From Antedon mediterranea (Eukaryota; Animalia; Echinodermata): 64,000 nt of DNA. The translations under genes were made by a program, and so were the position numbers. Positions 4,576 to 38,949 of this stretch are shown here, in pieces. The DNA lies in NCBI RefSeq assembly GCF_964355755.1, contig NC_092672.1, positions 19,729,237-19,793,236 on the forward strand. Reading direction: 5' to 3'. The notes beneath the pieces are model-generated. The model did not search any database, was not told the DNA's origin, and saw nothing but the letters and a program-made list of their open reading frames with translations. Position 1 is the stretch's first letter; every line of letters begins with the position of its first letter.

Positions 4576-4747
4576 GTCTATATCGTGCCTAGCTTACCTG
4601 TATAAACCGACAATAGCCCGTGCTCTCCAGAGGGAGGGCTTAGATACGAAAGTGAAAAGTTCCTGGAACACCCCTGTATTATAATGGACCCGTCCGCAAC
4701 CACGCCCTCATGTGGGAACGTACCAACGTACCACCGTCATCATTTTC
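4576..4747 (+). repeat. Left ITR of DIRS element 1
   Basis: Reverse complement of 9805-9974 except for a few mismatches in the outer ~14 bp. Confidence 0.95.
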
Positions 4748-5143
4748 TTTCGTAACGTGAGAACGTTACGACGTGTGAGAAAAGATACGCTGAGTGTTAG
4801 CCTTGTGTACGTTGTACATGCTATACTAGCCTACTTACGAACACCTTATAGAACGCCGGTTGCGGTACAGCTTGTGATAGTTTGATACTGTATATCGTTT
4901 TTTGCTTTGGATCCGTTTCAAATCGGGGTCTTCCTTATTTCGGGTAGAAATAAGAAAGATTAAAACAAGGAAAATACCAGTTTTCATTGGATTTCAGGCC
5001 GCTCAACGGCCACGCTACTAAACACAAAGGAAAGGAATTTTGCTTTGTCACCTGGACTGAGGCGTGGACGCACTGTTGCGTGAGGCAACAACAAAGGTTG
5101 TATTGTTCCTTATCTTGCTAGGTTGCGTGCTGTGTCCGCCGAT

Positions 5144-6670
5144 ATGCCTAAGTCTGAATGTGTGCAATGCAGGGGCCAGCGTGCGACAGTCAAGTGGGAC
5201 CGCCACTTGCTGTGCATTCACTGCCGCACCTGTAGCCAGGAGTCGCCGTGCGACATTTGTGTACATTGGACGGCTTCGCGGTTCCGGACGTTGCCTCGTC
5301 CGTCGGGGCGTGCGCGGGTGGTAGACCCCGCACCCGCGGAGGTTCAGGTGGAGCCCCCGGCCCCGCTAGTTGAAGAGATCGAAGCGCCGGAAGTTTTGCC
5401 GGACGCGCCTGCAACGGCCGCTGCGCCTCCACCGCAGAGTGGTACGCAGGACGAGGGTTTGTCCCCAGCCGTACTGGAGGCCATCGCAGCAGCGGTGCGA
5501 GCTCTACCGAGGGAGGCTGTGCCTTCGGCATCCTCGCTTAATTATCCCCCTGTGCCAGTACTGCCTCCGCAGTACTTTCAAGGTCAAGGGACGCACCCAT
5601 CGCCGGATGCCGGTGGGTACGACAGTGATAGGACCATGACCTCGCTGCCTAGTGAGGAGCGCTCCGAGGTTGCACAGGGTGGAGACGGTTTGCAGGCTCT
5701 GGTCAATCGTGTGGTTCCTGCTGTACTTTCGTACATTGGAGTGGAGTACGCTTTTGACGCGCCGACGCCCGCGCCGGCTTCGAAGAGGTACTCTACCTTT
5801 GGAGTGCGTGCTCCATTGAAGCGGGTCACGACCTGTCCAGTTGCGCCGCTGGATCCCGAACTGGTCGCTAGGGTTGAGGCTATAGCGAAGGAGCCTAAGA
5901 CCCGTAGAGCTGCTCCTCAAGATCTAGCAGCAGCCTTCCCGCTTCCGCAGGATCAGTTTCTACGATATATATCGGCACCACCGATCCCGGATGCAGCGAA
6001 AGAACGCGCGCGCGAGGATCAAGGTCTCGACGCCAATGGCAGATTTCTGTCTCCTTCGGCCGCTAAGACTGAGGAGGCGCTAATCGCGGTCGACCGTGGC
6101 GCACGCGAGACGTTACGCACGGTCTCGATGTCGGGCTACCTTTTGTCATTCCTCGCGGATCCGGACCATCCACAGCACCTTGACGCGGACGTGATCTGCT
6201 TGCTTCAGCAGATTACGGGCCTGGTCGCGGACCAACAAGCGACTATTGCAATGACCTCGGCCGCCGCGCGGAGGGTCAATTGCCTCCAGGCCACGGACAT
6301 CGCGCCCGCGCACTACCGCCGCTTCACAACTAGCGAGGCGTTCGGTGCTGTGGATCTCTTCTACGGTAATTTCGCCGAGAAGGAAGATAAGTGGGCTCGT
6401 GAGCGAGAGGCACGTCGCGAGACAAGATCGCGTTTTCCGAAACGCCAGGCGAGCCGTTCGCACTCGCGTCCAAAGCCTCCAGCCCCACTGCCGGTGGTGC
6501 CATCGCGTACTGTCTCACAACCGCCGCCGTCGGTCCATATTCAGTCTGAGGTTGGGCAGACTCCTGGGCCGTCGCGACCCCGTAATTCCCGCCCCGCGCG
6601 TGGCGGTAAGCCGGGTAGGGGAGCACGTCGGGACCGCGGTTCGCGACGAGGTGGCCGCAGGTACCGGTGA
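5144..6670 (+). CDS. gag: DIRS Gag-like ORF1 (element 1)
   Basis: ATG at 5144 (MPKSEC..., matches MPKQEC... of element 2). N-terminal C-x2-C-x11-H-x2-C-x2-C-x2-C-x5-C-x2-C; Arg/Gly-rich C-terminus; first ORF of the element. Confidence 0.9.
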   Translation: MPKSECVQCRGQRATVKWDRHLLCIHCRTCSQESPCDICVHWTASRFRTLPRPSGRARVVDPAPAEVQVEPPAPLVEEIEAPEVLPDAPATAAAPPPQSGTQDEGLSPAVLEAIAAAVRALPREAVPSASSLNYPPVPVLPPQYFQGQGTHPSPDAGGYDSDRTMTSLPSEERSEVAQGGDGLQALVNRVVPAVLSYIGVEYAFDAPTPAPASKRYSTFGVRAPLKRVTTCPVAPLDPELVARVEAIAKEPKTRRAAPQDLAAAFPLPQDQFLRYISAPPIPDAAKERAREDQGLDANGRFLSPSAAKTEEALIAVDRGARETLRTVSMSGYLLSFLADPDHPQHLDADVICLLQQITGLVADQQATIAMTSAAARRVNCLQATDIAPAHYRRFTTSEAFGAVDLFYGNFAEKEDKWAREREARRETRSRFPKRQASRSHSRPKPPAPLPVVPSRTVSQPPPSVHIQSEVGQTPGPSRPRNSRPARGGKPGRGARRDRGSRRGGRRYR

Positions 6671-8717
6671 CGTGCAGGCGAGGTCCGTGCCGTCGGGGGC
6701 CGGACCAGTGGGAGGTCGTCTCCTACGGTTCGTCCGAGAGTGGGAGAAGCTGATGGTAGACAGCTGGATTCTCTCCACACTAAGCTACGGCTACCGCATA
6801 GAATTCACGAGCCCTCCAGTGTGTGGAGGTCCTCGTCCGACCACAATCCCCAAAGATCCAATAAAGCAACGAGCGCTTATGGACGGGATTGCCGCGCTGC
6901 TCCAAAAAGGAGCCGTAGTAAGGGTCGAAGAACATCATGCGGGCTCGGGCCACGAATCAACCGTATTCTTAACCGAGAAGTCCTCGGGGGACTGGCGACC
7001 AATTTTAAATCTAAAACGTCTGAACAAGCGATTTATTCGGCCCCGCAGGTTTCGGATGGAGACAGTCTCATCGATCCTGTTAGGGCTAAGACGAGGAGAC
7101 TGGGCCGCGTCGATAGATTTAAAGGATGCGTACTTTCACGTACCAATCGCAAAAGAAGACCAACGTTGGTTGCGGTTTCGAATCAACAATTGTCTTTACC
7201 AGTTCGTCGCGATGCCGTTCGGCCTGTCAACGGCCCCGCGCGTGTTCACGCGCATAGTTCGGGCGCTCGGTGCGTTCTTTCACAAGCACGGCATTCGCAT
7301 ATTCATGTATCTAGACGACTGGTTAATCGTGGCTCAGTCCAAGGACCGGCTGGTGAGCAGTCTCAATTTCGTCCTTCTCGTAACGGAACGCGTAGGGTTC
7401 ATTGTGAACCGGGAGAAGTCGTGCCTGGTGCCGACTCAGCATCCCATTTATCTCGGAGCGCAGATAGATCTCGTGTCGGGCAGAGTGTGCCCCTCACAAA
7501 AACGAGTAACCAAAGCCCTTGCTGCTATACAAGGCCTGATTACCGCTTCCGCTCCGACGGCATACGACTGGCTGAGAACGCTAGGTTTCCTAGCCAGCTT
7601 TGTAGATCTAGTTCCGTTTTGTCGGCTACGGATGCGGCCGCTGCAACTTCATCTGTTAGCCTTCTACCGGCCAGGTTCAGACTCATTAGACAAAGTGGTC
7701 CCGATGTCGGCGTTCATTGTAACGCACCTCCAATGGTGGCTAACGGACGGCCGATTGTTAGTGGGCAGATCAATTCAGAGATCAATTCCGGACACCCGAA
7801 TAGAAACGGACGCGTCCGAAGCGGGTTGGGGCGGTTGCTCCAACCAAAGTCACGTCTCCGGCGTTTGGAGTGCCGAGGAGGCGTTAGCCCACATCAATCT
7901 CTTAGAACTTTGGGCAGTAGACCGAACGTTGAAAGCGCTACTTCCAAACATAGGAAATTCACACGTCCATGTCTGCTCGGACAACACAACCGTGGTCGCG
8001 TACATCAACCGACAAGGAGGCACGAAGTCTCCGACTCTTTGCTACCACACATGGACGCTCATACACTGGTGCATCGCGCACAGAATAACGCTGACTGCAT
8101 CGCATATTCCGGGCAGCCACAACGTAGTCGCGGACACGCTGTCCCGACTCGCTTTACGCCCGACCGAATGGCGTCTGTTGCCGAGCATAGCCACCCAAGT
8201 ATTCGACCACTTCGGACGGCCGCACATAGACCTGTTTGCGACGTCAGAGAACACGCAGCTCCCGACGTTCTGCAGTCGATTCCGGGATGCACGTGCGTGG
8301 GCGGTGGATGCCCTGTCCATGTCATGGGACGGTTTATGGGCGTACGCGTTCCCGCCAATATCGATCATACCAATAGTTCTGACTCACATTCAGCGCTTCC
8401 GATGCCGAGTTCTGTTGATCGCACCGTTCTGGCCTCGACAAGCGTGGTATCCGCTTCTTGCCAGTCTTCTTTACGATCACCCGCTGCGTCTTCCGGTCCG
8501 CGCGGATCTACTGACGCAAAATCGTGCGAGGTTCTCGACGATCAATCTACAATCCCTGAACCTGACTGTTTGGCCATTGTCAGGGATCAGCTCAGAGACT
8601 CGGGCATTCCGGACGGCCCAGCCGCCCTGGCGGCCAAATCTAGAAGAGAGTCGACTCTCACTGTCTACAACAGCCGTCTACGACACTTCTTTCGCTGGTG
8701 CAGACAAGATAACATAG
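6345..8717 (+). CDS. pol: DIRS Pol: reverse transcriptase - RNase H - adenine methyltransferase-like (element 1)
   Basis: RT motifs IDLKDAYFHVPI, PFGLSTAPRVFT, YLDD. RNase H residues in ETDAS, LLELWAV, SDNTT, ADTLSR. MT-like IDLFA, VDAL..W, YAFPP. Conserved part starts at VGGRL (GTG 6708); true start unknown. Confidence 0.95.
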   Translation: MLWISSTVISPRRKISGLVSERHVARQDRVFRNARRAVRTRVQSLQPHCRWCHRVLSHNRRRRSIFSLRLGRLLGRRDPVIPAPRVAVSRVGEHVGTAVRDEVAAGTGDVQARSVPSGAGPVGGRLLRFVREWEKLMVDSWILSTLSYGYRIEFTSPPVCGGPRPTTIPKDPIKQRALMDGIAALLQKGAVVRVEEHHAGSGHESTVFLTEKSSGDWRPILNLKRLNKRFIRPRRFRMETVSSILLGLRRGDWAASIDLKDAYFHVPIAKEDQRWLRFRINNCLYQFVAMPFGLSTAPRVFTRIVRALGAFFHKHGIRIFMYLDDWLIVAQSKDRLVSSLNFVLLVTERVGFIVNREKSCLVPTQHPIYLGAQIDLVSGRVCPSQKRVTKALAAIQGLITASAPTAYDWLRTLGFLASFVDLVPFCRLRMRPLQLHLLAFYRPGSDSLDKVVPMSAFIVTHLQWWLTDGRLLVGRSIQRSIPDTRIETDASEAGWGGCSNQSHVSGVWSAEEALAHINLLELWAVDRTLKALLPNIGNSHVHVCSDNTTVVAYINRQGGTKSPTLCYHTWTLIHWCIAHRITLTASHIPGSHNVVADTLSRLALRPTEWRLLPSIATQVFDHFGRPHIDLFATSENTQLPTFCSRFRDARAWAVDALSMSWDGLWAYAFPPISIIPIVLTHIQRFRCRVLLIAPFWPRQAWYPLLASLLYDHPLRLPVRADLLTQNRARFSTINLQSLNLTVWPLSGISSETRAFRTAQPPWRPNLEESRLSLSTTAVYDTSFAGADKIT

Positions 8718-9598
8718 ACCCTAAGGCGATATCCTTGGGTCAGATCTGCGCGTTTCTGCATTACCTGTACGAGTCAGGCTTGCAAGTGCGCACGGTGTCA
8801 GGCTACCGGTCCGCGATTGCGGCCATTACGCCGCCATTCAAGGATGGCTCGACGGTTTCAACTTCCGCAGTAATCACGCAGTTGTTGCGCGGTATGTTCA
8901 GAGAGCGACCTCCGTCTAAGGTCTTAGTTCCACGTTGGGACGTCAACGTCGTTCTATCCGCACTCACTCGCCCGCCATTTGAGCCAATGAGCAAGGCTTC
9001 ATTATACAATCTTTCGCTTAAGACAGCGTTTCTGGTGGCGTTGTCCTCATGTAAACGCCGAGGCGAGCTACATGCGCTCACGCTAGAGCCAGGCCATATA
9101 AGATTCGAGCGTGGCGGAGTTCGGTTAATATTCAGGAAGGACTTTCTGGCCAAGTCCCAGACGTTAAATTTTTCGCCGCCGGCTGTGTTCGTTCCATCAA
9201 TGTCCGCATTCTCGGGGGTAGTAGAGGACAAATTCTGGTGCCCGGTAAGAGCACTCAAATTCTACATCCACCGTACAGAGACGTTGCGAGAGGGTATATC
9301 TCACTTATTCGTCACATCGGTGCCCCCGTATCGGCCGGCCGCAAAATCCACGATTGCTAACTGGGTCGTGGCAGCGATTCGGGCCGCTTATGAGTCATCC
9401 AGCACTTTGCCGCCGGCACATATGCATGAGGTGCGGGGTGTTGCTACATCCTGGGCGTTGTACGCTGGCGTTGCTGTATCAGACATTATGACAGCGGCTT
9501 GGTGGCGGACACAGTCTACGTTTACTGCGCATTATTTAAGGGACATTTCTGCAACCATGGCGCCAGTAGCAGCAGCAGTGCTAAAGCCTAGGTTATAG
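6740..9598 (+). CDS. DIRS tyrosine recombinase ORF with long N-terminal part overlapping pol (element 1)
   Basis: C-terminal ~330 aa carry RRGEL (R), FLAKSQ (K), HEVR (H-x-x-R), AAWW (W) and TFTAHY (Y). The frame is open from 6671, directly after the gag stop and in the gag frame. Confidence 0.93.
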   Translation: MGEADGRQLDSLHTKLRLPHRIHEPSSVWRSSSDHNPQRSNKATSAYGRDCRAAPKRSRSKGRRTSCGLGPRINRILNREVLGGLATNFKSKTSEQAIYSAPQVSDGDSLIDPVRAKTRRLGRVDRFKGCVLSRTNRKRRPTLVAVSNQQLSLPVRRDAVRPVNGPARVHAHSSGARCVLSQARHSHIHVSRRLVNRGSVQGPAGEQSQFRPSRNGTRRVHCEPGEVVPGADSASHLSRSADRSRVGQSVPLTKTSNQSPCCYTRPDYRFRSDGIRLAENARFPSQLCRSSSVLSATDAAAATSSVSLLPARFRLIRQSGPDVGVHCNAPPMVANGRPIVSGQINSEINSGHPNRNGRVRSGLGRLLQPKSRLRRLECRGGVSPHQSLRTLGSRPNVESATSKHRKFTRPCLLGQHNRGRVHQPTRRHEVSDSLLPHMDAHTLVHRAQNNADCIAYSGQPQRSRGHAVPTRFTPDRMASVAEHSHPSIRPLRTAAHRPVCDVREHAAPDVLQSIPGCTCVGGGCPVHVMGRFMGVRVPANIDHTNSSDSHSALPMPSSVDRTVLASTSVVSASCQSSLRSPAASSGPRGSTDAKSCEVLDDQSTIPEPDCLAIVRDQLRDSGIPDGPAALAAKSRRESTLTVYNSRLRHFFRWCRQDNIDPKAISLGQICAFLHYLYESGLQVRTVSGYRSAIAAITPPFKDGSTVSTSAVITQLLRGMFRERPPSKVLVPRWDVNVVLSALTRPPFEPMSKASLYNLSLKTAFLVALSSCKRRGELHALTLEPGHIRFERGGVRLIFRKDFLAKSQTLNFSPPAVFVPSMSAFSGVVEDKFWCPVRALKFYIHRTETLREGISHLFVTSVPPYRPAAKSTIANWVVAAIRAAYESSSTLPPAHMHEVRGVATSWALYAGVAVSDIMTAAWWRTQSTFTAHYLRDISATMAPVAAAVLKPRL

Positions 9599-9673
9599 GT
9601 ATGTACACTTCACTTGCTCTGCTTTTTGTTAACTTACTCCCACCGCCGACTAGTTCTAGTCCGGTGCTAATCT

Positions 9674-9772
9674 GGCTATTGTCGGTTTATACAGGTAAGC
9701 TAGGCACGATATAGACTACACAAACCAGTAGTGGTGTTAGTAGTCTATGAGTGCTAGCTTACCTGTATAAAC
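9674..9772 (+). repeat. Internal complementary region (ICR) of element 1
   Basis: 9674-9716 is the reverse complement of the first 43 bp of the element and 9717-9772 of the last 56 bp; together they give the antisense circle junction ...TGTGTA|GTCTAT.... Confidence 0.95.
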
Positions 9773-9804
9773 TCCCTCCCGCCGTCCCCGCAGTCAAGTA
9801 CGCG

Positions 9805-10000
9805 GAAAATGATGACGGTGGTACGTTGGTACGTTCCCACATGAGGGCGTGGTTGCGGACGGGTCCATTATAATACAGGGGTGTTCCAGGAACTTTTCAC
9901 TTTCGTATCTAAGCCCTCCCTCTGGAGAGCACGGGCTATTGTCGGTTTATACAGGTAAGCTAGCACTCATAGACTACTAACACCACTACTGGTTTGTGTA
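9805..10000 (+). repeat. Right ITR plus 26-bp right extension of element 1
   Basis: Inverted copy of 4576-4747 (9805-9974) followed by tactaacaccactactggtttgtgta. Confidence 0.95.
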
Positions 10001-10064
10001 ATTTAATGTATACGTTAGTTTTACTTTGTTGTTTGTAGGTATAGTAATCATTTTGACATACTGT

Positions 10065-10250
10065 GTCTATATCGTGCCTAGCTTACCTGGATAAACCAAC
10101 ATAAGCCTCTCTCTCCGACGAGAGGTAAACATTACGAAAAGAAGAACATTAATAACATTAATTTTTCCCCACCCCCGTCGGATAATGGATCAGTCCGCCA
10201 CCAGTACGCCCTCAAGTGAGACACACCCACTTATCATCGTCATCATTTCT
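10065..10250 (+). repeat. Left ITR of DIRS element 2
   Basis: Reverse complement of 15223-15405 except at the outer end. Confidence 0.95.
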
Positions 10251-10556
10251 TTTCGTAACGTCGTTGTGTACGTACGTCTTTTTCTGAACACATTCCTGGA
10301 ATTCCTGAGGAATTTGCGATAAAGACTTTTATACTGTAGACTGGAAGAGAAGAATAGGGCAAGAAAACGAAGCTAAGTGTAGTAGATCGTTATCTTGTGG
10401 TTGGATACGTTTAGAATCGTTACCCTTGGCTAGTTGCCAGGAGTTAAAATTTAGCGTTGTAAGCCGTTATCCAGAGTGTTTCACCTGGATAGAAATACTG
10501 GAAGATCTTTTGTTGTTCGTTAGGCTAGTGGGTAGAAGTAGGTCTGTTAGATCACC

Positions 10557-12086
10557 ATGCCTAAGCAGGAGTGTGTTAAATGTGGGGGTCCCCGCTCTAC
10601 CGTGAAGTGGGACCGCCACTTGGAGTGCATACATTGCCGCACGTGTACCGAGTTGTCGCCGTGCGATGTTTGTGTCCGCTGGACACCGTCCAAGTTCAAA
10701 TCGCTCCCTAAGCCTAAGGAGCGCACGGAAGCTGTACCACCTCCGGAGGTGGGTACCGCCGATACGGCAGGCCCTCCTGCCGTCGCGCCGGAAGTTAGCC
10801 TTCCAGATATGCCTGCACCGGCTGCGGCCTCTGCGGTTCCGGGGGTGAATGAGATTTCTCCGGGGTTACTGCAAGCCATTGTTGCAGCTGTGAGAGCTCT
10901 GCCGAGGGATGAGCCTGAGGTACCCTCTCAGATTAGACCTCCTCCCCATATTCCATACATTGATGTTGGCCCACAGCAGACCTCGTTTTTCGATGGTTCG
11001 TCCGTCCGGCAAAGGGATTACGATAGTGACAGGACGATGGCCTCGCTCTCTGACGATGATAGAGATAGCTTACGAGAGCAGGCCGGGCCAGGGGAGGAAG
11101 GTCTGCAGGCGCTAGTTATGCGGACGGTCCCCGCGGTGCTGTCCTTTCTCGGCGTCGATTTCACGTATCGCGAGCCTAAGCATACTCCTTCGTCTAAGCG
11201 GTTTTCCACTTTTGGCGTACGCACGCCCTTTAAGAAGGTATCTTCGTGCCCGGTTACGCCTCTCGATCCAGAACTTGTGGAACGTGTGGAGCTGATCGCT
11301 AAGGAGTCCAAGATTCGTAGGCCTATGCCTTATAGCCTGTCATCGGCTTTTCCGGTGCCGCAGAAACAATTCGAACTGTACATCGCGGCGCCGAGCGTCC
11401 CGGAGGCAGCAAAGGAACGGGTCCGTGAGGACCAGAACCTGGACCCGTCCAGGACTAATTTTTTGAAGCCTTCGGAATCCCGGACAGAGGACGTCCTTAC
11501 GTCCGTCGACAGGGCCGCACGCGAGACGCTTAGAGCCGCCTCTATGGCCGGGTACTTGCTATCCTTTCTGGCTGATCCAGAACATCCGCCCCAGGGCGAT
11601 TCGGACGTGATAGCTCTACTACAGCAGATCATGGGCCTGGTTGTTGATCAACAGGCAACGATCTCATTATCTGCGGCCGCGGCCCGTCGCGTTAACGTCT
11701 TGGGTGCAACTGACATCGCACCGACCGATTTCCGTAGGTTTACTACGTCTGACTCCTTCGGGGCGCAGGACTTGTTCTTTGGCTCCTTCTCACAGAAGGA
11801 GGATAAATGGGCTCGTGAGAGGGAAGCTCGTCGGGAGACAAGGGCGCGCTTCCCGCAAAAACGCCGAGCTAGCAATTCACGCTCAAGGACAGCCGCACGA
11901 CCGCCGCCTGTCCCTGCTGCTCCTCAGCAGATGCAGCCTCCCCCGCCGCCACCGGCTCAGCCTATGCAAAGTCAGGCTTCTACATCAAGACAGGCTTCAC
12001 ACCCCCCTCGCGGAATGCGAAATAGGGGTGGCAAAGGCAACACCAACAGGAGTGGTCGCCGGTATTATAATGTGAAGCGCCGGTGA
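10557..12086 (+). CDS. gag: DIRS Gag-like ORF1 (element 2)
   Basis: 509 aa; same Cys/His finger and shared blocks with element 1 Gag (DSDRTM, PLDPELV, GYLLSFLADP, KEDKWAREREARRETR). Confidence 0.9.
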   Translation: MPKQECVKCGGPRSTVKWDRHLECIHCRTCTELSPCDVCVRWTPSKFKSLPKPKERTEAVPPPEVGTADTAGPPAVAPEVSLPDMPAPAAASAVPGVNEISPGLLQAIVAAVRALPRDEPEVPSQIRPPPHIPYIDVGPQQTSFFDGSSVRQRDYDSDRTMASLSDDDRDSLREQAGPGEEGLQALVMRTVPAVLSFLGVDFTYREPKHTPSSKRFSTFGVRTPFKKVSSCPVTPLDPELVERVELIAKESKIRRPMPYSLSSAFPVPQKQFELYIAAPSVPEAAKERVREDQNLDPSRTNFLKPSESRTEDVLTSVDRAARETLRAASMAGYLLSFLADPEHPPQGDSDVIALLQQIMGLVVDQQATISLSAAAARRVNVLGATDIAPTDFRRFTTSDSFGAQDLFFGSFSQKEDKWAREREARRETRARFPQKRRASNSRSRTAARPPPVPAAPQQMQPPPPPPAQPMQSQASTSRQASHPPRGMRNRGGKGNTNRSGRRYYNVKRR

Positions 12087-12126
12087 CGGCCCGGGGACGC
12101 CCGTCCCTCCAAGCGAGGGCGGGCAG

Positions 12127-14154
12127 GTGGGGGGTCGCTTGAAACGGTTTTCACGGGTTTGGGAGACCCTGACCACAGACAGATGGGTTCTCTCCACCGT
12201 GACACACGGGTATCGTATCGAATTCTCGAGCCCTCCGGTGAGCGGAGGTGCCCGGCACACGAGGATTCCGTCAGAGCCGGAAAAGAGTCAAGCGCTCATG
12301 ACGGGCCTCGAAGCACTGCTCCAGAAAGGAGCTGTGGTGCATGTTCAAAAGGAACAACTTACGATCTCGGGACACGAATCCACCGTTTTCCTCGCCCAGA
12401 AAAAATCGGGCGATTGGCGACCCATCCTAAACCTCAAAAGTCTGAACAAGCGGTACATCCGGCCCCGCAGGTTCAGGATGGAGACTGTCTCATCTATCCT
12501 GTTGGGGCTAAGACGAGGGGACTGGGCAGCCACAATAGACTTGAAAGACGCGTACTTTCACGTGCCTATTGCGCAAGAGCACCAGAGTTGGCTGCGCTTC
12601 CGCATTCACGATCAGGTATACCAATTCGTAGCTCTGCCGTTCGGCCTCTCAACGGCCCCACGAGTGTTTACTCGTCTAGTGAGAACCCTGGCGGCGTTCT
12701 TTCATCAACACGGCATCAGAGTATTCATGTACTTAGACGATTGGTTGATCGTGGCCCAGTCCAGGGACCAGCTGCTGAGCAGCTTATCTTTTGTCCGCCT
12801 CGTGACGGAACAAGCAGGGTTCATAATAAACGAGGAGAAGTCATGTCTTCACCCTTCTCAGAACCCTCTGTATCTCGGAGCCCAAATAAATTTGGTTACG
12901 GGCCGTGCGTGCCCATCCATCGAGCGTGTGGCCAAGGCAAGAACTGCAGTGCTACATCTTATCAATGCTCAGGCTCCGACGGCGTACGACTGGCTACGCA
13001 CCTTGGGGTCACTGGCCAGCTTCGTCGCCCTCGTTCCGTTCTGCCGGTTAAGGATGCGGCCTCTACATCTGCACCTTCTGGCAGCATACCGCCCAAGATC
13101 AGACTCTCTACACAAAGTGGTTCCAACGAATGCGTTCATTATCTCGCATCTCGAATGGTGGCTCGTGGAAGACAGGTTACTTGTGGGCACACCTATACAA
13201 AGGTCAATTCCGGATGTCCGTGTGGAAACGGACGCATCCGAAGTAGGCTGGGGCGGTCACATACCGTCTCCGGACATTCGCGTCTCCGGCCTCTGGTCGC
13301 CCGAGGAGACGCGCGCCCACATCAACCTGCTCGAACTTTGGGCAGTCGAGCGCTCGTTGGAGGCTCTTCTTCCCCATCTGGCAAATCGCCATGTTCTCGT
13401 CAATTCCGACAACACAACCGTCGTGGCATACATAAACAGGCAAGGGGGTACACGGTCCCCCACGCTATGTTGCCACACGTGGACGTTGCTAATGTGGTGT
13501 ATAAGACACAACATCCAACTGTCAGCGGCCCACATTGCGGGTCGTCTGAACATAGTGGCGGACGCACTGTCCCGTCCACTTCTACGTCCTACGGAATGGC
13601 GTCTTCTTCCAATAATCGCCACCCAGATCTTCAACCACTTTGGGCGGCCCCATGTAGATCTGTTTGCGACGTCAGGCAACACGCAGCTCCCGACGTTCTG
13701 CAGTCGATATCGGGATGCACATGCGTGGGCGGTGGATGCCCTGTCCATACCATGGGACAACCTTTGGGCATATGCCTTTCCACCGATTTCAATACTGCCA
13801 CTGGTCCTGACGCACATTCAGCGCCATCAATGCCGAGTCCTACTAATAGCGCCGTATTGGCCCAGGCAGCCGTGGTTTCCACTGCTTCTAGGCCTTCTGT
13901 ACGATCAGCCGTTACGTCTTCCGATTCGGAACGACTTGCTGACGCAGGGCCGAGCTCGGTTTGCTCTACCGAACCTCATATCCCTCGACCTGACTGTATG
14001 GCCATTGTCAGGGATCGTTTCAGAGACTCAGGCATTCCAGATGGTCCGGCCGCCCTCGCGCCGAAATCCCGACGGGAATCCACTCTTGCTGTCTACAATA
14101 GCCGATTTAAACACTTTTTCGAATGGTGCAAGCGCCAGAAGACCGACCCTATGA
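12127..14154 (+). CDS. pol: DIRS Pol: RT - RNase H - methyltransferase-like (element 2)
   Basis: IDLKDAYFHVPI, YLDD, ETDAS, SDNTT, ADALSR, VDLFA, YAFPP. Frame is open only from 12076; the listed start is a GTG. Confidence 0.95.
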   Translation: MGGRLKRFSRVWETLTTDRWVLSTVTHGYRIEFSSPPVSGGARHTRIPSEPEKSQALMTGLEALLQKGAVVHVQKEQLTISGHESTVFLAQKKSGDWRPILNLKSLNKRYIRPRRFRMETVSSILLGLRRGDWAATIDLKDAYFHVPIAQEHQSWLRFRIHDQVYQFVALPFGLSTAPRVFTRLVRTLAAFFHQHGIRVFMYLDDWLIVAQSRDQLLSSLSFVRLVTEQAGFIINEEKSCLHPSQNPLYLGAQINLVTGRACPSIERVAKARTAVLHLINAQAPTAYDWLRTLGSLASFVALVPFCRLRMRPLHLHLLAAYRPRSDSLHKVVPTNAFIISHLEWWLVEDRLLVGTPIQRSIPDVRVETDASEVGWGGHIPSPDIRVSGLWSPEETRAHINLLELWAVERSLEALLPHLANRHVLVNSDNTTVVAYINRQGGTRSPTLCCHTWTLLMWCIRHNIQLSAAHIAGRLNIVADALSRPLLRPTEWRLLPIIATQIFNHFGRPHVDLFATSGNTQLPTFCSRYRDAHAWAVDALSIPWDNLWAYAFPPISILPLVLTHIQRHQCRVLLIAPYWPRQPWFPLLLGLLYDQPLRLPIRNDLLTQGRARFALPNLISLDLTVWPLSGIVSETQAFQMVRPPSRRNPDGNPLLLSTIADLNTFSNGASARRPTL

Positions 14155-15026
14155 AAGTGACTTTGGGCCAGGTCTGCGCTTTCCTACATTACCTGTTTGA
14201 GTCAGGTCTGCAAGTTCGCACCGTATCCGGCTATCGGTCTGCCTTGGCTGCAGTAATTCCGAATTTTAAAGACGGCTCGACCATCTCTTCATCCCCTGCA
14301 ATTTCCAGTTTGCTTCGCGGGATGTTTCGAGAACGGCCTCCTACTAAGGCCCTGATTCCACGTTGGGACGTCAATGTCGTCCTAGCCGCTCTTATGCGTC
14401 CACCCTTCGAGCCCCTGAGTAGGGCATCACTTTACAACCTGTCTCTCAAAACTGCCTTTCTGATTGCACTAGCCTCGTGCAAGCGCAGAGGTGAACTGCA
14501 CGCTCTTTCTCTGGAGCCAGGGCACATCAGGTTTGAACGGGGTGGCGCGCGGTTAGTTTTTAGGAAAGATTTCCTTGCAAAATCTCAGACATTGAACTTC
14601 TCGCCGCCGACTGTATTTATTCCCACCATTGCTGCATGTTCAGGGGTTGAGGAAGACAGATTTTGGTGCCCAGTGCGGGCACTAAAGTTTTACATCAAAC
14701 GCACACAGTCCATTCGGGTCTCAGCGTCACATCTGTTCGTATCGACTGTTGCACCCTTCCGACCGGCTGCTAGGTCGACGCTGGCAAACTGGGTCGTGGC
14801 AGCCATCCAGGCTGGTTACGACTCCACAAATACGCCTCCTCCGGAACATATGCACCAAGTGCGTGGCATAGCCGCTTCATGGGCGCTGTTTGCTGGGGTG
14901 CCCCTTCCAGACATCCTGCAAGCGGCATGGTGGCGATCACAGTCCACCTTCACATCCCACTACCTGTCGGATACCTCCGCAAACCAGTCTACGGTGGCAG
15001 CTTCAATCTTGAAGCCCAGGCACTAG
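12159..15026 (+). CDS. DIRS tyrosine recombinase ORF overlapping pol (element 2)
   Basis: RRGEL, FLAKSQ, HQVR, AAWW, TFTSHY. The frame is open from 12087, directly after the gag TGA and in the same frame. Confidence 0.93.
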   Translation: MGDPDHRQMGSLHRDTRVSYRILEPSGERRCPAHEDSVRAGKESSAHDGPRSTAPERSCGACSKGTTYDLGTRIHRFPRPEKIGRLATHPKPQKSEQAVHPAPQVQDGDCLIYPVGAKTRGLGSHNRLERRVLSRAYCARAPELAALPHSRSGIPIRSSAVRPLNGPTSVYSSSENPGGVLSSTRHQSIHVLRRLVDRGPVQGPAAEQLIFCPPRDGTSRVHNKRGEVMSSPFSEPSVSRSPNKFGYGPCVPIHRACGQGKNCSATSYQCSGSDGVRLATHLGVTGQLRRPRSVLPVKDAASTSAPSGSIPPKIRLSTQSGSNECVHYLASRMVARGRQVTCGHTYTKVNSGCPCGNGRIRSRLGRSHTVSGHSRLRPLVARGDARPHQPARTLGSRALVGGSSSPSGKSPCSRQFRQHNRRGIHKQARGYTVPHAMLPHVDVANVVYKTQHPTVSGPHCGSSEHSGGRTVPSTSTSYGMASSSNNRHPDLQPLWAAPCRSVCDVRQHAAPDVLQSISGCTCVGGGCPVHTMGQPLGICLSTDFNTATGPDAHSAPSMPSPTNSAVLAQAAVVSTASRPSVRSAVTSSDSERLADAGPSSVCSTEPHIPRPDCMAIVRDRFRDSGIPDGPAALAPKSRRESTLAVYNSRFKHFFEWCKRQKTDPMKVTLGQVCAFLHYLFESGLQVRTVSGYRSALAAVIPNFKDGSTISSSPAISSLLRGMFRERPPTKALIPRWDVNVVLAALMRPPFEPLSRASLYNLSLKTAFLIALASCKRRGELHALSLEPGHIRFERGGARLVFRKDFLAKSQTLNFSPPTVFIPTIAACSGVEEDRFWCPVRALKFYIKRTQSIRVSASHLFVSTVAPFRPAARSTLANWVVAAIQAGYDSTNTPPPEHMHQVRGIAASWALFAGVPLPDILQAAWWRSQSTFTSHYLSDTSANQSTVAASILKPRH

Positions 15027-15089
15027 GTACGTATGACAATGTTTACCTTGCCTCCCGCCTCCGACTAGACTCTAGTCCGGTGCTACACT

Positions 15090-15187
15090 GGCTTATGTTG
15101 GTTTATCCAGGTAAGCTAGGCACGATATAGACTACACAAACCAACAGTGGTGTTGGTAGTCTATGAGTGCCGCTTACATGGATAAAC
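15090..15187 (+). repeat. ICR of element 2
   Basis: 15090-15132 is complementary to the left end; 15133-15187 is complementary to the right end with one mismatch. Confidence 0.95.
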
Positions 15188-15222
15188 GCCCTCCCTACCG
15201 TCCCCTCAGGCAGGTGGTCTTG

Positions 15223-15431
15223 AGAAATGATGACGATGATAAGTGGGTGTGTCTCACTTGAGGGCGTACTGGTGGCGGACTGATCCATTATCCGACGGGG
15301 GTGGGGAAAAATTAATGTTATTAATGTTCTTCTTTTCGTAATGTTTACCTCTCGTCGGAGAGAGAGGCTTATGTTGGTTTATCCAGGTAAGCGGCACTCA
15401 TAGACTACCAACACCACTGTTGGTTTGTGTA
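15223..15431 (+). repeat. Right ITR plus 26-bp right extension of element 2
   Basis: Inverted copy of the left ITR to 15405, then taccaacaccactgttggtttgtgta. Confidence 0.95.
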
Positions 15432-35199: not shown

Positions 35200-35636
35200 A
35201 TTTGTTAAACATCTTTGTATAAAAATTGATTAAATTCACATCTTTAATGAATGGTGGTACAGAATAGTTGTAGCTCTGTTGTTAAGAAAGCTAATTGTAA
35301 TACTGTACTCCCTGTCCAAATTGGTGGGCTGCCTTTTGATGGATTACTTCCTGGCCTAGCCTTTGATGATAAGATGGAAGCAATGGATTAACTGAATAAA
35401 GTTTACTTAGAACAGTAGGTGTGTGTTTATAACAAAGAAAGATGAATGTTTTCATTTTTTAGTGAATTACTGATTCTATTTAACTCAGCACTGCCTTGAA
35501 AATTTCTCCCCATTACATTCAAGTCACAAACATTAACTAATGCCAAGGCATGATAACATGCTGCCACAGCTGCCAGCTATACTGCAGTATCACCTAGTTT
35601 ATTTAGCAGGGTTCTGGAATATCAGCAGAAGTTGTA

Positions 35637-37079
35637 GCAAAGCATCTTGCATCTTATGGTTTGTTACCTTCAGTAGCTATTAAATCAAATCAATATCACA
35701 GGCAGAATAGCAAAGAATCTTGCATCTTATGGTTGTTACCTTCAGTAGCTATTAAATCAAATCATTATCACAGGCAGAATAGCAAAGCATCTTGCATATT
35801 ATGGTTGTTACCTTCAGTAGCTATTAAATCAAATCAATATAACAGGCAGAATAGCAAAGCATCTTGCATCTTATGGTTGTTACCTTCAGTAGCTATTAAA
35901 TCAAATCATTATCACAGGCAGAATAGCAAAGCATCTTGCATCTTGTGGTTGTTACATTCAGTAGCTATTAAATCAAATCAATATCACAGGCAGAATAGCA
36001 AAGCATCTTGCATCTTGTGGTTGTTACCTTCAGTAGCTATTAAATCAAATCATTATCACAGGCAGAATAGCAAAGCATCTTGCATCTTATGGTTGTTACC
36101 TTCAGTAGCTATTAAATCAAATCATTATCACAGGCAGAATAGCAAAGCATCTTGCATCTTGTGGTTGTTACCTTCAGTAGCTATTAAATCAAATCAATAT
36201 CACAGGAAGAATAGCAAAGCATCTTGCATCTTATGGTTGTTACCTTCAGTAGCTATTAAATCAAATCAATATCACAGGCAGAATAGCAAAGCATCTTGTA
36301 TCTTATGGTTGTTACCTTCAGTAGCTATTAAATCAAATCAATATCACAGGCAGAATAGCAAAGCATCTTGCATCTTGTGGTTGTTACCTTCAGTAGCTAT
36401 TAATTCAAATCATTATCACAGGCAGAATAGCAAAGCATCTTGCATCTTGTGGTTGTTACCTTCAGTAGCTATTAAATCAAATCATTATCACAGGCAGAAT
36501 AGCAAAGCATCTTGCATCTTGTGGTTGTTACCTTCAGTAGCTATTAAATCAAATCAATATCACAGGCAGAATAGCAAAGCATCTTGCATCTTGTGGTTAT
36601 TACCTTCAGTAGCTATTAAATCAAATCATTATCACAGGCAGAATAGCAAAGCATCTTGCATCTTATGGTTGTTACCTTCAGTAGCTATTAAATCAAATCA
36701 TTATCACAGGCAGAATAGTAGCAAAGCATCTTGCATCTTATGGTTGTTACCTTCAGTAGCTATTAAATCAAATCATTATCACAGGCAGAATAGCAAAGCA
36801 TCTTGCATCTTATGGTTGTTACCTTCAGTAGCTATTAAATCAAATCATTATCACAGGCAGAATAGCAAAGCATCTTGTATCTTATGGTTGTTACCTTCAG
36901 TAGCTATTAAACCAAATCAATATCACAGGCAGAATAGGAAAGCATCTTGCATCTTATGGTTGTTACCTTCAGTAGCTATTAAATCAAATCATTATCACAG
37001 GCAGAATAGCAAACCATCTTGCATCTTGTGGTTGTTACCTTCAGTAGCTATTAAATCAAATCAATATCACAGGCAGAAT
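35637..37079. repeat. 72-bp minisatellite, about 20 copies
   Basis: Unit gcaaagcatcttgcatctt(a/g)tggttgttaccttcagtagctattaaatcaaatca(a/t)tatcacaggcagaata. Confidence 0.97.
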
Positions 37080-38949
37080 GGCAACATTTTATTTTAACAT
37101 ATTTAAAAACACTATATTTAAAACTGTACCTTAGTATATGAACATAATAAAAACTGTAAATCAAGAAAAACAACATAAAAAAGGTAAGTCACAATGTGTA
37201 CATCATTCAACAGTCTGATGGAATATGAATTGATGATACAAAATGAATTTAAATATCTTGTCACCTGACCATTGCACAATCTTAGTGAATTCAGTCTTTT
37301 ATCTCATTTTTATTTACCAAATAAAGAGTGATTTAAATCCTCACATATTTTCATAGCCTTTGTCAGCTTATTGGGGTTTGATCATGTCATCTGGACTGAT
37401 TTTAATAATATTTGTTTTTCTCTTTTATTCTCTATCTAGAAAATCATGGCACTTTCAACTTTTAAATCCCAAAAAATAAAAAAATTATTATAAACACTCA
37501 TGTAAAGAATTTGTCAAATTTTATATAAAATTATAAATATTTATTAACATTGTAAATAAGTCAATACAGTAATTGTGTCATATTTGTTGTGATTGTTTGT
37601 TATCCAAACATGATCAATATTTGTATACATTACCTTTTTTTTATACATCATTAATGATCATAAACAGTTTAAATTTGTAACTTTATCATATAGATTTTGC
37701 CTCTTTCACTGTAAATGAATTGATAAAATGCACTTTGTGAAGTGAAACAAATTAATGTAATAAAATTCACTTAATTAAATAAATTAAATCAATAAATTTA
37801 AACTCAGATTACAAATACTGCCACCAGTGTCCCAACATTTGAGATCACTTTTTTCTTATAAATACTGCCACCAATGTAAGCTTATTTGTTTTCTTTGCTG
37901 TTCTATATTTGTAATCAATACAAAGGTTAAAGTGTAAATATTACCTTTTATGGATTCTCTGCCTACAGTGTTGAGCCTAATCTAATACTGTTTTACTTAA
38001 ATTGTACAAAGGGTTCTTAAAACTTATCCACATGTCTAAATTAGATTGAAGTTCTTCAATTCAATTGTTATTTACAGTTTTGCTGAAAGAAATTGATAGG
38101 TTGCAAATTTAAATTGATTTAACAAAGTTACGAATGTGAATTAAGAGATTGTTCCAAATGGCTGGAATGACATTAAAAAAGAATATTTAAGAGAGTTACA
38201 ATGGACAAAAGGGATACAGAAAGTGGGGAAATTTCTTCTTTGATTAATAAAGTATTACTGACAAAAACGTTTCATTATTTTGTGCTTTGGCCTATAGAGG
38301 GCGTTTTTAAGAATGGTGTTGTTAATTGTTCAAACATTTTAAAAGATTACTTTGTACTGCTCATATTTATTTTGCAGGGTGTGAGTGAGTGTAGCTACTG
38401 TATGACACAAAGTCCAATGTTATTGAACTTCCTTCAATACAGACTTGTAAACAATTACTATTATGTAATTTGCACATTTTGAGCTTTGCTGTCATGTGAC
38501 TATAAAATCACATAAAATCAATTTTCAATAAAATCATTAAATTCATTTTTAAACATTATATTTGATTAATTTATTCACCATATGACATGATCAAAAAGAA
38601 AAATCAATATGCATCTGTACTATAAGATGCTTTTATTAAAATGTCATTATAGCACATGGCAGAATTGGAAGTAAAGTTTGACAATAGTAAAAAATAGTTG
38701 AAATGGTAAATCATACAAAATGATAATCTATACAAAATTAACAAATCAGGATAACAAGAAACAAACATGATACAAATAAGATAACAATTTATTTGACATT
38801 GACATTATCTTATATTATGACCTTTGTATTTTCTATTTATTTTACCTTGTCTTTAACCAATATTACATTTGAAATTGTAGGGCAATGATAAAATGAAAGC
38901 AAACATTAAATTATGCGACTTTGAATACTTGATTGACACAAACAATTTA

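Follow-up and report, generated by a model that had tools for sequence, protein, structure and literature searches.

In this study, we examined a 64,000-nt stretch of Antedon mediterranea DNA (NC_092672.1, assembly GCF_964355755.1; hereafter the window, to whose positions all coordinates refer) that carries two adjacent full-length DIRS1-like retrotransposons, E1 and E2, which lie 64 nt apart and are 72% identical in pol (Table 1). In each element, a gag-like open reading frame (ORF) and the frame of the tyrosine recombinase (YR) are in phase and are parted by exactly one TGA; both the coordinates and the frames had been put forward in a sequence-only reading of the window, and we find them to be correct. 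E1 reads from ATG 5144 through 508 codons to the TGA in CGG-TGA-CGT, and on through 975 open codons to TAG at 9596-9598. As that reading had also claimed, its frame runs open for 354 codons past the stop before the first ATG (7733, codon 355). E2 reads from ATG 10557 through 509 codons to the TGA in CGG-TGA-CGG and on through 979 open codons to 15026, its first ATG past the stop being codon 33. In both elements pol is +1 to gag, a point absent from the earlier reading, and the linker between the gag stop and the YR domain is overprinted on it.

The domain content fits this assignment. RVT_1 was matched in pol of both elements (Pfam; E 8e-22 and 1e-22), RNase H-type families matched pol below their own cut-off, and the last ORF matched Phage_int_SAM and a Cre-like fold (E 1e-9), with the catalytic motifs present; no integrase or protease family was found in the element proteins (Pfam). 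The methyltransferase region is without a Pfam match and contains DLFA and YAFPP motifs; the supplement of PMC3266345 names AFPP among the motifs of pol (for this and the other articles cited by PMC number, statements refer to the excerpts used here). The gag-like ORF, also without a Pfam match, takes its label from its position and from knowledge of the DIRS layout, and its N-terminal Cys motif is common to two of the relatives described below (L004 and L006). The element ends are inverted repeats, not the split direct repeats of Ngaro and PAT elements. The arms of the inverted terminal repeats (ITRs) are 100% complementary in both elements and, therefore, both are probably recent. The closest named protein, 80% identical across the YR domain, is itself from Antedon mediterranea. 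E1 and E2 belong to different families, stand in the same orientation and have near-identical termini and internal complementary regions (ICRs; 91% over 100 nt); these termini, together with insertion 64 nt apart (spacer 10001-10064), suggest a shared target preference.

The recombinase frame is held open across pol

Relatives of the two elements were gathered from contigs of metagenomes and, within metagenome-assembled genomes (MAGs), from repeat contigs of eukaryote type, presumably host DNA, and were split into a long-overlap and a short-overlap group; a quick tree was used only for counting lineages. In 25 of 28 long-overlap loci, representing about 10 lineages with less than 45% pol identity between most pairs, gag is followed by a single stop and then by an open YR frame. 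Among these 25, fewer than 120 codons of gag are present, at a contig end, in L016, L017, L037 and L062; five are cut downstream and two (L003 and L005) have later frameshifts. The counts exclude L015, which has no reverse transcriptase (RT) start, duplicates and unrelated RTs among L018-L056, the distant RT loci L081-L094, and the divergent or decayed L076, L078 and L080. Long gag homologues were searched for and none was found, and scans of viral contigs returned no relatives.

Expected numbers of stops were obtained by synonymous shuffling of pol codons, with the pol protein and its codon use retained. Across pol, the YR frame contains no stop where 17.4 (E1) and 19.9 (E2) are expected, an outcome seen in 0 of 2000 shuffles of each; the E1 stretch ahead of the first YR-frame ATG is equally clear (0 against 8.9 expected, 0 of 2000 shuffles). 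Twenty long-overlap elements together have no YR-frame stop in 10,252 overlap codons against 343.8 expected, and each of the 20 has none where its shuffles give 11-28. Nine elements of the short-overlap control clade contain 438 stops in 4,562 codons against 445.4 expected; as this clade matches its expectation, the null model can be trusted, and selection acts on the linker frame. A stretch of particular weight begins at the gag stop and ends at the first conserved Trp of pol, the earliest start-like codon to recur, and totals 646 codons over the 25 loci; there, stops are absent from the YR frame (~17 expected) and from the pol frame, and number 26 in the third. The first YR-frame ATG can fall anywhere from codon 19 to codon 507 past the stop in these loci, and its position differs between close relatives (39 versus 466, 29 versus 507, and 28 versus 334); in E1, 17 ATGs occur from the gag start to the first YR-frame ATG.

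The linker itself is rich in Ser, Arg, Gly and Pro, depleted of Trp (34 versus 82 expected) and under slight sequence constraint, and fourfold sites are somewhat more conserved inside the overlap (0.45 versus 0.33 for E1/E2). It is predicted to be disordered (pLDDT ~30) and the YR domain to be Cre-like; on these predictions, the linker is a spacer and not a domain. In the protein database, 81 of the 120 long YR homologues listed are linker-plus-YR ORFs, and the other 39 are mixed pol/YR gene models. The starts of the database ORFs cluster ~10 residues into the linker; we considered this cluster as a start site and rejected it, because it is explained by NUG at the conserved Trp of pol. The NCBI record P0099 (1366 aa), which contains gag, part of the linker and YR, was left uncounted since it may be a spliced gene model.

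We propose that a Gag-linker-recombinase protein is probably made by readthrough of the gag stop. It is the usual logic of retroelements that most ribosomes stop after gag. Here, most would terminate at the gag stop and release Gag, and a minority would decode that stop as sense, aided in E1 and E2 by the C at position +4 and by the hairpin 3' of the stop. In the product of ~1485 residues, a disordered linker of ~630 residues would tether the recombinase to Gag. Carried along with Gag, the recombinase would enter the particle in which cDNA is made and be packaged with the cDNA at a low ratio to Gag, and the long flexible tether would let the recombinase domains assemble on DNA. Since DIRS elements, from what is known of these families, are without a protease, the fusion would presumably stay whole. 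Such a fusion was already suggested in the sequence-only reading; it now gains strong comparative support from the shared frame and single stop of 25 loci, from a YR frame kept free of stops by selection, from avoidance of TAA, from an unconserved ATG and from a sister clade predicted to arrive at such a fusion differently, with readthrough as the step that would produce it.

Table 1. Features of E1 and E2 (window positions)
Feature	Position	Strand	Description
E1	4576..10000	+	full-length DIRS1-like; termini from ICR complementarity; three intact ORFs
E1 left ITR arm	4589..4747	.	159 nt, 100% complementary to 9805-9963
E1 gag-like ORF	5144..6670	+	508 aa; Cys/His-rich N-terminus, Arg/Gly-rich tail
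E1 pol frame	6255..8717	+	+1 to gag; RT, RNase H and methyltransferase-like motifs; VGGRL 6708, first ATG 6753
E1 gag stop TGA, then CGT	6668..6673	+	predicted readthrough, possible +1 shift site
E1 linker frame overprinted on pol	6671..8566	+	~632 codons, stop-free; Ser/Arg/Gly/Pro-rich, predicted disordered
E1 hairpin	6682..6706	+	9 bp, one 5' bulged U, 11 nt past stop
E1 tyrosine recombinase domain	8567..9598	+	Cre-like fold; R, K, HxxR, W and Y motifs present
E1 ICR	9674..9772	.	complementary to both termini
E1 right ITR arm	9805..9963	.	pairs with left arm
E2	10065..15431	+	second full-length family
E2 left ITR arm	10081..10250	.	170 nt, 100% complementary to 15223-15392
E2 gag-like ORF	10557..12086	+	509 aa
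E2 pol-frame stop	12073..12075	+	11 nt ahead of gag stop; limits gag-to-pol entry to last gag codons or later
E2 pol frame	12076..14154	+	+1 to gag; VGGRL 12127, first ATG 12298
E2 gag stop TGA, then CGG	12084..12089	+	exact type II readthrough context
E2 linker and YR frame	12087..15026	+	979 codons; YR domain from ~14016
E2 hairpin	12099..12124	+	10 bp, one 5' bulged U, 12 nt past stop
E2 ICR	15090..15187	.	complementary to both termini
E2 right ITR arm	15223..15392	.	pairs with left arm

Elsewhere in the window, a 334-codon ORF at 31523-32527 matches RVT_1 (E 2e-31) and represents a separate retroelement fragment, and a repetitive ORF of 496 codons at 35607-37097 has Pfam matches that are driven by its repeats only.

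The gag stop, its hairpin and entry into pol

As gag stop, over the 25 loci, there are 16 TAG, 8 TGA and 1 TAA, and TAA is avoided relative to its share among nearby stop triplets (1 of 25 versus 34.5%; binomial p 0.0004, uncorrected for kinship); the terminal stops of YR are TAA in 10 of 19 cases. In 21 of 25 loci the stop is followed by C or G, again uncorrected for kinship, and the commonest context among the relatives is UAG-G (9 of 25). The type II readthrough context is exact in E2 (CGG) and is found also in L005 (CTA); E1, with CGT, comes near to it, and 22 of the 25 loci are without UGA-C. Both TGA-CGT and the stem that follows it are unchanged in contigs of runs X8, X9 and X11.

The hairpins of E1 and E2 fold as the sequence-only reading had drawn them, with stems of 9 and 10 bp, one 5' bulged U each and spacers of 11 and 12 nt. 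It had called the sequences flanking the stop unalignable, which is true of the gag tail alone, where the E1-E2 gag alignment gives out at residue 442 of 508; sequences 3' of the stop can be aligned, and the hairpins are homologous. All eight of the eight pairs compared between the two stems are kept, two of them through compensatory changes, and long stems follow the stop in several other loci (L001, L003, L011 and L012).

A number of observations weigh against readthrough of this kind. The covariation between E1 and E2 is equalled by 119 of 500 shuffles and, coming from two sequences, is suggestive only. The hairpins are no stabler than shuffles (z +0.34 to -1.62 in six windows), values of z near -1 occur at unrelated offsets too, and structure 3' of the stop is weakly enriched over 21 elements (mean percentile 0.37, Fisher p 0.086). 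One consensus RNA structure across lineages was sought and not found. UGA-C occurs in 3 of 25 loci, with UAG-G or UAG-C in most of the others, so that the conserved cassette of UGA-C and bulged hairpin described in the sequence-only reading holds for the E1/E2 family pair and not beyond it. A copy from run X2 has TAA in place of TGA (copies from that organism also show frameshifts), and L029, apparently intact, carries TAA as its gag stop. The sharing of a frame by gag and YR is, moreover, not independent evidence, because it is forced once YR is -1 to pol and pol is +1 to gag. Related families had been expected to keep gag and YR in one frame, and 25 of 28 loci do so; in L002 and L013, which are decayed copies, gag lies in the third frame, with the YR frame still spanning the gag end, and L004 is without any gag stop, possibly via an indel.

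L004, with a Gag-linker-YR frame of 1626 codons, was considered as a natural fusion and set aside, since gag of its sister L002 lies in the third frame and a similar tail closes the third frame of L004; the lack of a stop may thus be due to an indel within a homopolymer run. At the gag end of this sister pair (L002:814-901 and L004:3316-3412) there are -1 slippery heptamers and homopolymer runs, with the pol and YR frames open, and such a site could allow shifts of -1 (into pol) and -2 (into YR).

Entry into pol appears to be tied to the same stop. Because the conserved pol N-terminus, VGGRL, lies upstream of the first pol ATG in both elements, and YR follows the gag stop, both proteins are without an ordinary start. 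The pol frame is open across the gag stop in all 25 loci, most of which have no ATG before the conserved N-terminus, and in 15 of 16 loci tested its open length upstream of the stop does not exceed chance. To judge from these sequences, the most likely entry into pol would be out of gag, at this stop or no more than a few codons away. In 7 of 25 loci the last gag codon is TTT, AAA or CCC, against a background of 7-12% (p 0.002-0.02), and no conserved +1 motif for pol was found in the 25 loci. Given this lack of a shared motif, and the CGG ahead of the stop in E1 and E2, we regard the chance that a +1 shift at the gag stop makes pol as roughly even.

The short-overlap clade and competing routes to the recombinase

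In the short-overlap elements (L064-L075 and L077, most of them from one assembly, G001), gag is +1 to pol and several loci have repeats of the ITR/ICR type. A -1 slippery heptamer is present in the gag frame within the gag/pol overlap in 11 of 11 elements whose gag end was mapped (13 heptamers versus 1.8 expected), and in 11 of 11 the best donor-like site around the gag end lies 2-35 nt past the gag stop and in phase 0 relative to pol. A pyrimidine tract and AG occur at the FPPFS codons of pol, ~230 nt before the YR domain, in 12 of 12 elements (6 by pattern and 6 by eye), as opposed to an AG at this position in 2 of 19 long-overlap elements. The Ser codon of FPPFS is always AGY, and one element retains the AG with an Arg codon. 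Of 6 elements measured, 5 have this putative acceptor AG in phase 0 relative to YR and the sixth has a later frameshift; in L067 the AG is the very point at which the YR frame opens. These features predict an intron of ~1.65 kb whose removal would excise pol and join Gag to YR in frame, with unspliced RNA giving Gag-Pol and spliced RNA giving Gag-YR, both after one -1 shift. The clade shows, at the level of predicted signals, that a closed linker frame coincides with another route from Gag to YR. T-rich AG motifs just upstream of the RT start were rejected as acceptors, since in two elements their distance to the donor is 18-19 nt, and since they code for a protein motif of pol. L068 and L075 enter the acceptor count only, except that L068 is also in the short-overlap stop count; L068:817-4077 is a short-overlap element with gag and pol in a single frame of 1087 codons. 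G001, the source also of L006, L009, L010 and L057-L094, is a bacterial MAG with 141 reverse-transcriptase matches on short contigs; as these contigs resemble pieces of eukaryotic repeat consensus, they are probably host DNA contamination. Near the RT start of three distant RT elements (L084, L085 and L090), the ends of the first ORFs have TTGAAAAAAACTAG in common, which is likely another -1 frameshift site beside a stop.

If not by fusion to Gag, the linker-YR frame could be translated alone, by reinitiation or from a subgenomic RNA, using an ATG or near-cognate codon near the stop. Trp codons of pol supply NUG-G in the YR frame 15-39 codons past the stop in every element, an ATG lies within 40 codons in 9 of 25 loci, and Dictyostelium ORF II was expressed alone behind a vector promoter (PMC3950715). 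When placed in a yeast reporter, the similar gag-UGA-pol junction of Tca2 failed to direct readthrough, and it contained a cryptic promoter (PMC2194720), which counts against readthrough and shows that such junctions can conceal a promoter. We nevertheless consider separate translation unlikely: the base before the pol Trp is A in only 5 of 25 loci (G in 9, C in 7, T in 4), which argues that ATG is not selected; the frame is free of stops upstream of the NUG codon as well, where ~17 were expected; and neither TAA avoidance nor the retention of a disordered leader of 630 residues would be explained. Antizyme and closteroviruses provide models for another arrangement, +1 frameshifting. Here, the stop and hairpin would serve mainly for a +1 shift into pol, and YR would be reached otherwise, for example by a second shift that leaves pol again directly past the stop. 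This would suit a pol that opens across the stop without an ATG, that in E2 opens just 11 nt before the stop, and whose upstream length is chance-like, and it would make use of the slip-prone codons before the stop in 7 of 25 loci. However, the CGG before the E1 and E2 stops cannot re-pair at +1, and the shift back needs a -1 site, whereas no conserved slippery heptamer was found in the 25 loci; as the exclusive purpose of the stop, a +1 shift is quite improbable. A +1 shift is compatible with readthrough alongside it.

Splicing could also remove the stop, in E1 and E2 from a donor at the gag stop (CCG/GTGACG) to an AG before the YR domain (8573 in E1), leaving no linker. The sister clade appears to splice, the E1/E2 donor fits 6 of 9 consensus positions and the phases would suit. 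Against this, the donor site exists in only 6 of 25 loci, exactly those in which the last gag codon ends in G, and the best donor-like sites of the long-overlap clade are mixed in phase and score lower. A stop-free linker would, in addition, be pointless if spliced out, and it is in the clade that seems to splice that the frame is closed. We therefore view splicing as highly improbable; the contigs listed (15 of 31 for one set) contain no joint across the stop, which has no bearing on splicing. Least credible of all is an open frame that goes untranslated and results from pol codon use or from a constraint on the RNA, with YR starting from a site of its own near its domain. A linker with no predicted fold and little sequence conservation would be in keeping with this, yet shuffles that retain pol and its codon use fill the frame with stops in every element, the control clade sits at expectation, and neither the depletion of Trp nor the added conservation of fourfold sites would follow.

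Readthrough to a Gag-linker-recombinase can be extended, though only tentatively and with some doubt on our part, to a three-way switch on one mRNA, in which termination would give Gag, readthrough the Gag-linker-recombinase and a +1 shift Gag-Pol. The sole role of the long overlap would then be to bring ribosomes from Gag to the recombinase; elements with a short overlap would instead use a -1 frameshift and an intron that removes pol.

Relation to known systems

A pol/YR overlap of ~1.9 kb has been known for decades, and no account of how either protein is translated was found in the open literature, as far as its excerpts go. Of 28 annotated elements, half have a long overlap (Piednoel et al. 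2011, PMC3266345), and the excerpts of that article describe it without saying how YR or pol would be translated; the present analysis links it to the gag stop. Readthrough, frameshifting or splicing as a route to a DIRS1 Gag-YR protein was not found in the open full-text literature consulted, in excerpts, which does not include the papers of Goodwin and Poulter. "Gag-YR" or "Gag-recombinase" was not in use among the literature matches listed. Goodwin and Poulter 2001 and Poulter and Butler 2015 reportedly dealt with the overlaps, and a Gag-YR fusion may have been put forward there. Novelty of the strategy is thus provisional. The feature itself is real and well beyond chance, and the element family is a known one whose expression strategy is likely undescribed.

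The proposal reduces to one testable rule that covers both architectures, namely that the recombinase is made as a Gag fusion. If true, a long overlap with a leaky stop and a short overlap with frameshift and splice signals would be two solutions, the long-overlap loci would represent a new kind of natural readthrough site in the genomes of animals, possibly with two recodings at one codon, and the linker would be a clean case of an overprinted frame of 630 codons retained only as a spacer. A working retrotransposition assay exists for Dictyostelium DIRS-1 (PMC7192593).

The elements resemble DIRS1-like elements such as Dictyostelium DIRS-1 in having a Gag-like ORF, a pol with RT, RNase H and a methyltransferase-like region, YR, ITRs, an ICR and a long pol/YR overlap (PMC3266345), and the DIRS1 relatives examined here include short-overlap elements with frameshift and splice signals. 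With gammaretroviral gag-pol (type III, as in murine leukaemia virus, MuLV; UAG-G and a pseudoknot; PMC3159437) they have in common a single stop after gag, with UAG-G in 9 of 25 relatives, and the Candida retroelement Tca2 (gag-UGA-pol; PMC2194720) likewise has a single stop after gag. In contrast to MuLV and Tca2, the in-frame partner is the recombinase and not pol, pol is at +1, and no pseudoknot is demonstrated here. In the stop region there is a likeness to type II readthrough in alphaviruses, tobraviruses, furoviruses and coltiviruses (PMC3159437), with UGA-CGG in E2 or UGA-CGU in E1, a spacer of 11-12 nt and a stem of 9-10 bp with one 5' bulge; this geometry fits that of the alphavirus stem, which has 10-12 bp, a 1-nt bulge and a spacer of 8-12 nt (Firth et al. 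2011, PMC3159437). Unlike type II sites, the candidate sites of E1 and E2 have a short loop and not one of 100-150 nt, and have relatives with mostly UAG-G or UAG-C, and their predicted readthrough frame is overprinted on another gene.

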